From a virus: a DNA stretch of 19,920 nucleotides. The notes below the pieces were generated by a model that had not been told where the DNA came from, made no database searches, and worked only from the letters and a program-made list of their open reading frames with translations. The translations under genes were made by a program, and so were the position numbers. The stretch lies in UHGV virus genome UHGV-0097752. One strand, given 5' to 3'. Each line of letters begins with the position of its first letter. Within the stretch, counting starts at the first letter, position 1. Below are positions 1 through 17,928 of this stretch, in pieces.

Positions 1-372
1 CAGTTGTTTTGATTTCCGGTAGCCTGCCGCGTAAATGGCTACGTTTGGAAGACATACACCAGTTTCTGGTTGCTTATGTCCAAACTCATTCGCGTACACA
101 ATGGCCGCTCTCTCCAGATTGCGTCTGTATTCTTTCTGTTGCCAGATCACGTCCTGTGCCATGAACTTAATTGGCTTAGCGTCTTCTATGCGCTCAGGCG
201 TTTCGTGAGTACCTTTAGCCTGAATCTGCGCTCTGCTTAGAGTAGGGCGGTGTAATACTTCTGAACTTATTGCTTCTTCGCGGGCCAGTACGCCGTTAGC
301 TAATGCCTTTGCCTTTAAACGCTCACGACGACGAGAACGTGAATTGCCTTTGAACTGAGTTCTGCGTGTCAT
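1..372 (-). CDS. N: N-type transcription antiterminator, 5' part (ORF runs off window start)
   Basis: Minus-strand ORF starting at ATG (complement of 370-372) with AGGAGG about 5 nt upstream. N-terminal arginine-rich motif (NSRSRRRERLKAKA) and a ...VAIYAAGYRKSKQ... segment resembling P22 gene 24/N-family proteins as recalled. Sits downstream of pL and a boxB-like hairpin. At least 124 codons are visible, longer than lambda N, so C-terminus and true length are unknown. Confidence 0.6.
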   Translation of the reverse strand, partial: MTRRTQFKGNSRSRRRERLKAKALANGVLAREEAISSEVLHRPTLSRAQIQAKGTHETPERIEDAKPIKFMAQDVIWQQKEYRRNLERAAIVYANEFGHKQPETGVCLPNVAIYAAGYRKSKQL

Positions 373-553: not shown

Positions 554-600
554 GTAGATTCATATTTGAATCGTTGTATATTCACCGCCCTGGTGAGTAG

Positions 601-684
601 TGCGTCCTGCTGATGTGTTTAGCATCACCGCCAGTGGTATTTATGTCAACACCGCTAGAGATAATTCATCACCGCAGATGGTTA
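601..684 (-). promoter_or_regulatory. pL promoter with OL1-OL2-OL3 operators
   Basis: Minus strand reads TATCTCTAGCGGTGTTGACATAAATACCACTGGCGGTGATGCTAAACACATCAGCAGGACGCA: -35 TTGACA (plus 644-649), 17-nt spacer, -10 GATGCT (plus 621-626). 17-bp operator-like sites at 624-640, 648-664 and 668-684 match the lambda OL half-site pattern as recalled. Confidence 0.8.
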
Positions 685-768
685 TCTGTATGTTTTTTAT
701 ATGAATTTATTTTTTGCAGGGGTGCATTGTTTGGTAGGTGAGAGATCTGAACTGCTATGTTTAGTGAG

Positions 769-798
769 TTGTATCTATTTATTTTCAAATAGATACAA
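769..798. repeat. Perfect 12-bp inverted repeat with 6-nt spacer (TTGTATCTATTT-ATTTTC-AAATAGATACAA)
   Basis: Read directly: the right arm is the exact reverse complement of the left arm. AT-rich, non-coding, between the pL operators and the leftward terminator. No T-tract follows on either strand. Confidence 0.9.
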
Positions 799-835
799 TT
801 GGTTATGTGTTCTTGGGTGAGGGGGATCGTGAGGC

Positions 836-861
836 AAAGAAAACCCGGCTCTGTGGCCGGG
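836..861 (-). terminator. Intrinsic terminator for the leftward cI/KilA-N transcript
   Basis: Minus strand CCCGGCCACAGAGCCGGG (6-bp GC stem, 6-nt loop) followed by TTTTCTTT, about 80 nt downstream of the KilA-N gene stop. Confidence 0.5.
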
Positions 862-942
862 AATAACATTTAGGAATCAAGGTCAGGTAGCATGATTTTC
901 TCAATCAACGTCAATGCCCTTTGGTCTCGTTCAGCAAAATAT

Positions 943-1629
943 TTAGGAGCGTACTGAGGCAGCCACACTTCGTTGAAGTATTGTTTGAAATCTGCAATAT
1001 TCGTTTGGGTATAGACGTACCGGGAATGTCCGGCCATCTGGGTACTCATGGTTATATGTTGGGAATGTCTTCGGCTCAACCCCCCGGTTGTCACGGAGCC
1101 ATTGCGAGAAAACCCTACCCTCTGAAATATCAGGGACCATTTTTTCTGGCAGCGTATATCCGGCCTGTTCAAGTGGCGCAACCAAGTTAAACGTCAGTTC
1201 ATTAAGCATAGAAAAGTGCGTATGAGGAACTCTGCCTCGGTTTGTCATATACCGCTTAAGGTGGATAGGGAGTTCGGCAGGCGCTCTTTCACCTGACATC
1301 CACTCACGCACCCATCTCGATACTTGCACTGCAAATTTTGGAGATAGCCACTGAGCTAAATTAATTGCGATGTCTGGATGAACCCAAGTCCCTTGATTCT
1401 CTGCTCTTCCGCCTTTAAATGATTGAATTAACTCCGATATGGGAATCCCCATATCGCGTGATAATTCATCAAAAAAATCTTGTGTTGTTTTTAGTCGTGT
1501 ATAGTCAGCAAGTAGCTTCCCCGCAGACTTGCACATCGCGGTGGCATTGATGTATCCGTCTTTGGTGCGAAGATGGATGACTTCTCCATCAACTTCTCTA
1601 GCGATTAATGCAAGTTGAAATTGTGTCAT
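943..1629 (-). CDS. KilA-N domain protein with unassigned C-terminal half (occupies the rexAB-equivalent slot)
   Basis: 228-aa minus-strand ORF. The N-terminal half carries the KilA-N/APSES-like signature (DGYINATAMCKSAGK ... GTWVHPDIAINLAQWLSPKFAVQVSRWV). Start ATG (complement of 1627-1629) lies 31 nt downstream of the cI stop with an AGGA RBS, same orientation as cI. C-terminal ~110 aa not recognised. Confidence 0.75.
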   Translation of the reverse strand: MTQFQLALIAREVDGEVIHLRTKDGYINATAMCKSAGKLLADYTRLKTTQDFFDELSRDMGIPISELIQSFKGGRAENQGTWVHPDIAINLAQWLSPKFAVQVSRWVREWMSGERAPAELPIHLKRYMTNRGRVPHTHFSMLNELTFNLVAPLEQAGYTLPEKMVPDISEGRVFSQWLRDNRGVEPKTFPTYNHEYPDGRTFPVRLYPNEYCRFQTILQRSVAASVRS

Positions 1630-1660: not shown

Positions 1661-2377
<717 letters not shown>

Positions 2378-12656: not shown

Positions 12657-12748
12657 TGTTCACTTTATTTTGTTCCTTGATTTGATATGTGATGACCCAA
12701 TAGATACAAAGCACCTGATTTGGGTGATTTTTTTGAAGGACTATACAC

Positions 12749-17300: not shown

Positions 17301-17928
17301 TGTACCGCTGAGTCTGAAATCTGTCAGTGACTCCGGTGAGTTTGAAGGGTATGGCTCCGTCTTTGGTGTAAAGGACAGCCACGATGATGTGGTGATGTCC
17401 GGGGCATTTGCTGCTTCCCTGCGGGCGTGGAGTGACAGAAAAGCGTTACCTGCGCTGCTCTGGCAGCACCGCATGGATGAGCCCATCGGTGTTTACACCG
17501 AAATGAAGGAAGACGATGTCGGGCTTTACGTCAGGGGGCGGTTGCTCATTGATGATGATCCCCTGGCAAAACGCGCACATGCACACATGAAGGCCGGTTC
17601 GTTAACCGGCCTTTCTATTGGGTACGTCTTGAAAGACTGGGAATACGACCGGAGCAAAGAAGCCTTTCTGCTGAAAGAAATCGACCTCTGGGAAGTCAGT
17701 CTGGTGACGTTCCCGTCTAACGACGAGGCGCGGATCAGCGACGTCAAGAACGCACTGGCCCGCGGGGAAATCCCCGAACAGAAAAAAATCGAAAGAGTCC
17801 TGCGTGATGTCGGACTCTCCCGTACCCAGGCCAAAGCATTCATGGCCGGGGGCTATGGCGCACTGTCCCTGCGCGACGCTGAGGATGTGGGCTCTGCACT
17901 GAATGCACTGAAAAATCTGAACTTCTAA
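17278..17928 (+). CDS. Prohead maturation protease (HK97 family)
   Basis: Track ORF 17242-17928; start more likely ATG 17278 (MQTKQRLDV...). Between portal and major capsid as in HK97; active-site residues not individually verified. Confidence 0.8.
   Translation: MQTKQRLDVPLSLKSVSDSGEFEGYGSVFGVKDSHDDVVMSGAFAASLRAWSDRKALPALLWQHRMDEPIGVYTEMKEDDVGLYVRGRLLIDDDPLAKRAHAHMKAGSLTGLSIGYVLKDWEYDRSKEAFLLKEIDLWEVSLVTFPSNDEARISDVKNALARGEIPEQKKIERVLRDVGLSRTQAKAFMAGGYGALSLRDAEDVGSALNALKNLNF

Follow-up and report, generated by a model that had tools for sequence, protein, structure and literature searches.

Does the perfect inverted repeat at positions 769–798 of the virus genome UHGV-0097752 mark a regulatory site of this phage, or is it a sequence inherited along with its surroundings? 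The window, i.e. the whole stretch of 19,920 nucleotides analysed here, carries the repeat as two arms of 12 nt each, TTGTATCTATTT (769–780) and AAATAGATACAA (787–798), on either side of the 6-nt loop ATTTTC (781–786). The repeat search gave 100% complementarity between the arms, in agreement with the sequence-only reading, which had described an exact repeat at this place. On a leftward RNA the left arm would form an A-rich 3′ arm and the right arm a U-rich 5′ arm. With arms of at least 12 nt and a loop of 0–20 nt, this was the sole perfect inverted repeat across the 19,920-bp window. Such a repeat was contained in 5 of 300 dinucleotide-preserving shuffles of the whole window (mean 0.017 per window), and shuffling of the local AT-rich region 690–840 gave a perfect repeat with arms of at least 12 nt in 0 of 5000 trials. 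The runner-up among the perfect inverted repeats of the window, at 17590–17613 (10-bp arms, 4-nt loop), lies within late/structural genes. The literal palindrome sequence gave no match when searched for in paper text.

At its start the window covers a lambdoid prophage's immunity region, in which an N-type antiterminator gene (1–372, minus strand; Pfam N_peptide) and a lambda-type CI gene (1661–2374, minus strand; Peptidase_S24 and HTH) were identified, the latter followed by cro and then cII. Alignment with the annotated lambda operators located OL1 (623–639), OL2 (647–663), OL3 (667–683) and the pL start (near 614), all on the minus strand. The leftward cI operon ends at an intrinsic terminator, tImm, a stem-loop at 844–861 on the minus strand with its U-tract at 843–836. 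The palindrome thus occupies about −155 to −184 relative to pL and lies, as had been claimed before, between the operators (OL1–3, 623–683) and the leftward terminator (861–844). In lambda, tImm corresponds to 35799–35824 (PMC3349717), and the PRM and PLIT transcripts end at this terminator (bioRxiv 10.1101/2021.04.19.439022).

Several features of this region differ from lambda. OL1 and OL3 begin with CATCACC in the window versus TATCACC in lambda, and OL2 contains CGCTAG versus CGCCAG. The OL1 change alters the pL −10 hexamer from GATACT to GATGCT, which explains why the promoter scan that detects lambda pL made no pL call in the window; pL of the window may be weakened. The boxB hairpins are of the P22 type, one at 538–552 (GCGCTGACAAAGCGC, leftward strand) and one, CGCTGACAAAGCG, in the cro–cII gap within 2676–2812, so that, next to a lambda-type immunity region, the N/nut module is mosaic. 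In Salmonella phages the match to the query was confined to the nutL part.

The palindrome was found to be homologous to lambda 35737–35766, TTGTATCTATTT-ATTTTT-CAATAAATACAA, inside the spacer between OL3 and tImm. Window 560–870 showed 92% identity to lambda, and the 30-bp palindrome was identical at 27 of 30 positions, the changes in the window being T→C at 786 (loop), C→A at 787 and A→G at 792. The lambda sequence has the same position as the window palindrome, with the same operators (OL3 at 35635–35651) and the same terminator on either side, but it is imperfect, with one C:A mismatch on the plus strand, an 11-bp stem and an 8-nt loop instead of the 12-bp stem of the window. The two changes at 787 and 792, relative to lambda, turn the repeat perfect. 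The annotation of NC_001416 contains nothing between OL3 and rexB. The statistical surprise is a property of the ancestral repeat, and no more than two substitutions in the arms separate the window copy from the imperfect form that is common. Very probably, the tImm–OL3 backbone spacer of lambda-like phages has an ancestral AT-rich inverted repeat, of which the palindrome is the local allele, its perfection being incidental.

The repeat belongs to a conserved lambdoid backbone block (740–861, minus strand, the start being approximate), which opens with the BglII-site motif GAGATCT, takes in the repeat, closes with the tImm stem and is homologous to lambda ~35708–35827. The window itself has alignable sequence between OL3 and tImm. 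The block was found in lambda, HK97, HK544, BP-4795, 2G7b, ev207, Stx phage 1717 and phages of the 933W type, and the phages sharing it differ in the immunity region and in the genes downstream of cI. Among 5426 complete E. coli genomes the block was found in 629, with at least 99% identity in only 2. Conservation drops abruptly at 862, right behind the terminator stem, the majority fractions falling from 0.97 to 0.4–0.8. The position 861/862 is a sharp mosaic junction, where one and the same terminator adjoins many different downstream genes.

Among the complete E. coli genomes listed, only that of strain 1008S19 (NZ_CP147050.1, 1596940–1597150) was 100% identical over 690–900. At this locus the N annotation is that of a gene fragment, the KilA-N gene is short, at only 342 nt, and cII is followed by an IS1; the locus is a decayed relative of the window prophage. 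Exact matches to the tImm anchor also came from taxonomically unrelated assemblies, among them Paenibacillus, Shewanella, Pseudomonas, Desulfovibrio and marine MAGs. Several were on low-coverage contigs of ~48.4–48.5 kb; they look like lambda control DNA contaminating the assemblies, and the scan of these contigs was uninformative as to taxonomy.

Variants of the block were collected from four viral-contig scans, one metagenome scan and phage records, a sampling biased by the anchors used. About 323–324 loci carried the block, with 144 distinct block sequences, and the repeat was present in 288 loci of this set. The perfect allele was restricted to 13 of the ~324 loci, including the window, all of one haplotype, and the version in lambda and in most relatives is imperfect. 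In the 933W/Stx type (23 loci) a 12-nt deletion takes the loop and the greater part of the left arm, and in a further 13 loci unrelated sequence stands in place of the repeat; any function of the palindrome is therefore dispensable. The conservation in related prophages that the sequence-only reading had proposed as a check thus held for the repeat, which most relatives have, but not for its perfection, the form there being imperfect, nor for the 933W/Stx clade, from which it is missing. Conservation was uneven along the element, the left arm being less conserved than the right arm. Majority fractions were 0.94–1.00 in the right-arm columns 788–797 and merely 0.40–0.66 in columns 780, 786 and 787; the loop, with five or more variants, was the most variable portion of the palindrome.

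The block is intensely shuffled among prophages. Four-gamete incompatibilities were observed for 776 of 2016 site pairs in 740–861, and at least 18 recombination intervals (Hudson–Kaplan Rm) were counted over ~125 bp. These were spread through the block and had no focus on the palindrome, which speaks against the recombination hotspot proposed previously: the incompatibilities span the entire ~125-bp block and are not gathered at the repeat.

The gene on the far side of tImm (943–1629, minus strand) occupies the position held by rexAB in lambda and encodes a protein of 228 amino acids. It matched Pfam KilA-N (6.6e-27), PHROG 6287 BstA (1.3e-66) and PADLOC BstA (8e-13). Compared with the intact bstA-type gene of PhiR5_2 (253 amino acids), it is 99.5% identical (764 of 768 aligned columns) and carries a 2-nt deletion at ~997/998, whose frameshift swaps the last ~42 residues for 17 others. 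By homology, the KilA-N reading frame is thus an abortive-infection (defence) gene of the BstA family, frameshifted in this prophage. BstA proteins have a cognate DNA element that counters them, and the only characterised cis element of this kind, aba, comprises 29 bp upstream and the first 34 bp of bstA (PMC8585504).

A dyad as regular as this one, next to such a gene, could be read as the operator or cis element of a dimeric phage regulator, either KilA-N/BstA, in an aba-like self-immunity, or CI/Cro. Its perfect symmetry, the BstA-type gene flank in all 12 other loci with the perfect allele and the existence of a cognate element that counters BstA proteins (PMC8585504) would all fit this reading. 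The distribution of alleles does not. Among 22 loci with the same KilA-N/BstA gene flank beside tImm, 10 had the perfect repeat and 12 had one of three imperfect forms; PhiR5_2, whose gene is 99.5% identical, has an imperfect repeat, and in lambda an imperfect repeat adjoins rexAB. Since loci with the same flank are about equally often imperfect, and since the lambda repeat stands next to rexAB, the operator for the KilA-N protein suggested earlier is unsupported. The BstA-type gene of the window is itself frameshifted.

The comparison with aba (Owen et al. 2021, PMC8585504) points the same way. Both are short non-coding DNA elements tied to a BstA-family gene downstream of cI, but aba overlaps the 5′ end of bstA and needs terminal direct CCCGCC repeats, whereas the window palindrome is an inverted repeat past the 3′ terminator. 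Unlike aba, it is common to phages that have no BstA and variable among phages with the same bstA flank. With its position beyond the 3′ terminator and four repeat alleles on one gene flank, the palindrome was rejected as the cognate aba element.

As regards CI, which had been named as another possible binding protein, inspection against OL1–3 showed no resemblance to the 17-bp lambda-type operators (TATCACCGC-N-GCGGTGATA): the TATC and GATA elements are 22 bp apart, not 17, and the CACCGC core is absent. A CI site is thus unlikely, and a CI/Cro operator was rejected as a candidate. Further copies of the half-site in the window amounted to one match with 1 mismatch, TTGTATCTATTG at 12698–12709 (minus strand), in the gap after the lysis genes and with the partner arm absent; such a lone copy is at chance level (36 of 200 shuffles) and was discarded as evidence for a regulon. 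The palindrome is not an operator for KilA-N/BstA or CI, and for a dimeric phage regulator in general the reading is very improbable.

Terminator and promoter scans were carried out with lambda pL and tImm as positive controls. The only terminator-like site near the palindrome was 861–844 on the minus strand, with the tail TTTTCTTTGC; the lambda equivalent of tImm was called on both strands. The scan was silent at the palindrome. An intrinsic terminator was rejected on two further counts, the stem having only 2 G-C pairs in 12 and no T-tract following it (TTGGTTATG on the plus strand, CTCACTAAA on the minus strand), and the earlier statement that the palindrome lacks both the G+C-rich stem and the T-tract of such a terminator was borne out. 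It resembles tImm in adjoining it, in lying on the same transcribed strand and in sharing the conserved block, and differs from it in having no U-tract and in its few G-C pairs per 12, namely one in lambda and two in the window.

No sigma-70 promoter with a spacer of 16–18 nt was called in 350–1000 of the window or in the lambda spacer, although lambda pL was detected. A rightward promoter of the form TTGTAT-N19-TACAAT, whose product, an antisense or small RNA, would run up to tImm, is hardly credible. The TACAAT at 793–798 is nearly invariant, and lambda tImm is terminator-like on the plus strand as well; however, the scan was empty here in both the window and lambda, the spacer is 19 nt long, the 933W clade has lost the −35 candidate, the plus-strand tail behind the stem is non-conserved (AATAAC in the window) and no Rfam family matched. 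The Rfam covariance models, run over 300–1100, gave only chance-level matches (E at least 2). Two small open reading frames, 701–820 (plus strand) and 669–869 (minus strand), were set aside as well, neither start nor frame being conserved (ATA for ATG in the HK97 type, and indels that are not multiples of 3).

The best-conserved stretch, AATAAATACAATTGGTTATGTGT at 788–811, is asymmetric and off the dyad centre, and it contains CAATTGGTTA. This raises another reading, in which the right arm together with CAATTGGTTA would be the core of a binding site for IHF or a similar nucleoid protein of the host. Jointly with the known IHF/UP-element region upstream of pL, such a site would shape pL activity or OL–OR looping. 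Giladi et al. 1998 (cited in PMC3708714) reportedly described an IHF site and a distant UP element upstream of pL, the IHF site being the one at −86; IHF sites upstream of pL are reportedly named L1 and L2. The likeness consists in AT-rich DNA upstream of pL and a partial IHF core: ATACAATTGGTTA fits the core CAANNNNTTR with an A/T tract upstream and agrees at 11 of 13 consensus positions, and the variation of TTGG (ATGG, TGAG, TCGA, TAGG) falls within the N4 positions.

The difference is one of place and match, the palindrome lying some 70–100 bp further upstream than the −86 site, at −155 to −184, with two mismatches to the consensus and a phage-variable spacing to pL. This spacing to OL/pL shifts by 4–10 bp among phages, which argues against a role dependent on helical phase, and the CAA is broken in common variants (CAT in 31 loci, TAA in 28). 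The conservation of 798–812 is partly due to the search anchor. Compared with WATCAANNNNTTR, the IHF core with its upstream A/T tract, ATACAATTGGTTA has 2 mismatches; the consensus scan gave nothing here at up to 1 mismatch, and such matches occur in the window at chance frequency, so that the scan has no power. PMC3708714 bears out the existence of an OL-proximal UP element and no more than this. Overall, a nucleoid-protein site at the palindrome appears unlikely.

If the palindrome acts at all, its variation leans towards the leftward RNA. The C:A mismatch on the lambda plus strand is a U·G wobble on this RNA, and the lambda hairpin was predicted at −8.9 kcal/mol (z −4.3) leftward versus −7.2 kcal/mol (z −1.7) rightward. 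For the 11-pair stem in 30 distinct full-length variants, standard pairs made up 97.9% of cells on the leftward strand versus 86.4% on the other, with Watson–Crick pairs alone at 85.5% on both strands. Predicted folding energies of the full-length variants were mostly −8 to −9.5 kcal/mol for the leftward RNA (a few were weaker, the ev207 type reaching −3.7) and −1 to −7.5 kcal/mol for the rightward RNA; the window is one of two exceptions in which the rightward fold is more stable. For the 933W/Stx clade the best predicted hairpin has 7 bp, three of them wobble pairs, at ~0 kcal/mol.

Variation is greater in the arm that supplies the A-rich strand of the leftward hairpin because A→G keeps the pairing there, while U→C breaks it. 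Transitions that preserve pairing only leftward were found at seven sites (769, 770, 771, 772, 774, 779, 790) and those that preserve it only on the other strand at two (777, 796), a difference that is non-significant (one-sided p ~0.09). Pair 777:790 passes from A-U through G·U to G-C across the variants, and pair 775:792 occurs as U·G, C-G (in the window) and U-A. Leftward covariation comprised one compensatory pair and nine extra pair types, values reached by 85–88 of 500 column shuffles. The variants are related and heavily recombined. The variation thus leans modestly, and non-significantly, towards an AU hairpin kept in the leftward RNA. The hairpin in the leftward transcript proposed by the sequence-only reading is somewhat strengthened, since the wobble-compatible variation favours the leftward strand; 12 AU pairs, however, are too short for a classical RNase III site.

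The same data must be weighed against a purely neutral origin, in which the sequence has no function and persists because a young tImm–OL block has been homogenised by recombination among E. coli lambdoids. The block is restricted to lambdoids of the E. coli/Shigella type, Salmonella phages matching just the nutL part; its identity of 80–93% is ordinary for shared mosaic segments, recombination over it is pervasive, and the covariation is non-significant. Moreover, the 933W/Stx clade, a successful one, has dispensed with the hairpin, and another group has a different sequence in its place. On the other hand, the arms are kept while the loop is variable, the changes are biased to keep leftward-RNA pairing, with one compensatory pair included, and the leftward-strand folding energies are nearly uniform. 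Neutrality is given somewhat less than an even chance. Any RNA-level role of the palindrome is more doubtful still.

The spacer from OL3 to tImm (684–835, minus strand), with the hairpin mid-way, gives a leftward RNA that is C-rich and G-poor (C 27.6%, G 7.9%, C/G 3.5 over 152 nt) and has little structure besides the hairpin. The cro–cII gap of lambda-like phages contains nutR and the Rho-dependent terminator tR1. The C/G ratio of this gap in the window is 1.95, so that the skew of the spacer is at least as strong as that of the window's own cro–cII region, and YC dimers number 15 per 100 nt in the spacer versus 13 per 100 nt in the tR1 region. Among the 100-nt windows of the whole stretch the C>G skew of the spacer is only in the top 4.5%. 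By its composition, and by that alone, the spacer resembles a rut region (C-rich, G-poor, weakly structured, ~80 nt or more). Three loci whose spacers are non-homologous to lambda keep the skew (C 34–37%, G 9–13%), and analogous hairpins in these spacers were inconsistent.

By analogy with tR1, a mechanism can be proposed. In any leftward PRM/PRE transcript that gets past tImm, the palindrome would form an AU hairpin of 11–13 bp, beginning 38 nt beyond the tImm U-tract and flanked by two C-rich, G-poor, unstructured stretches, a layout that would be that of rutA–boxB–rutB at lambda tR1. The tR1 hairpin can be dispensed with and serves only to bring the Rho-binding stretches together; for this reason the spacer may be seen as a backstop that would stop read-through into OL/pL, with the hairpin as a minor, non-essential part.

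The two systems would share a hairpin that lies, behind an operon, between unstructured RNA stretches rich in C and poor in G, and a hairpin that is dispensable, shown in the case of the window by the clade that deleted it. They differ in that the hairpin of the spacer is AU-only and no boxB, the true boxB elements of this phage being P22-type, and in that the spacer lies after an intrinsic terminator, so that traffic through it would be low. A tR1-like backstop is the most plausible, if unproven, activity of the palindrome and its spacer. Carried further, the analogy suggests that the tImm–OL3 spacer of lambda-like phages could be an unrecognised, Rho-dependent transcriptional insulator, with two C-rich tracts around an AU hairpin, which would catch PRM/PRE read-through before the CI occupancy of OL/pL is disturbed and in which the hairpin would be kept at the RNA level via G·U intermediates; in this full form the proposal is speculative and rather improbable.

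Weighing the identity of the repeat and its incidental perfection together with the RNA-level role, the account as a whole is held with slightly better than even confidence. The palindrome is very probably an ordinary inherited feature, which may, at most, take a minor part in a read-through backstop. For this prophage the consequence is small, the palindrome being an inherited allele of the reference lambda sequence and no new regulatory site; the neighbouring "KilA-N" gene emerges as a defence gene of the BstA family, frameshifted, whose known cis element lies elsewhere. The wider interest is that a stretch of ~150 bp of lambda to which no function has been assigned keeps a strand-specific composition and a hairpin compatible with leftward folding. 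If the backstop terminator is true, it would add a little to what is known of the insulation of the lysogenic operon from pL/OL.
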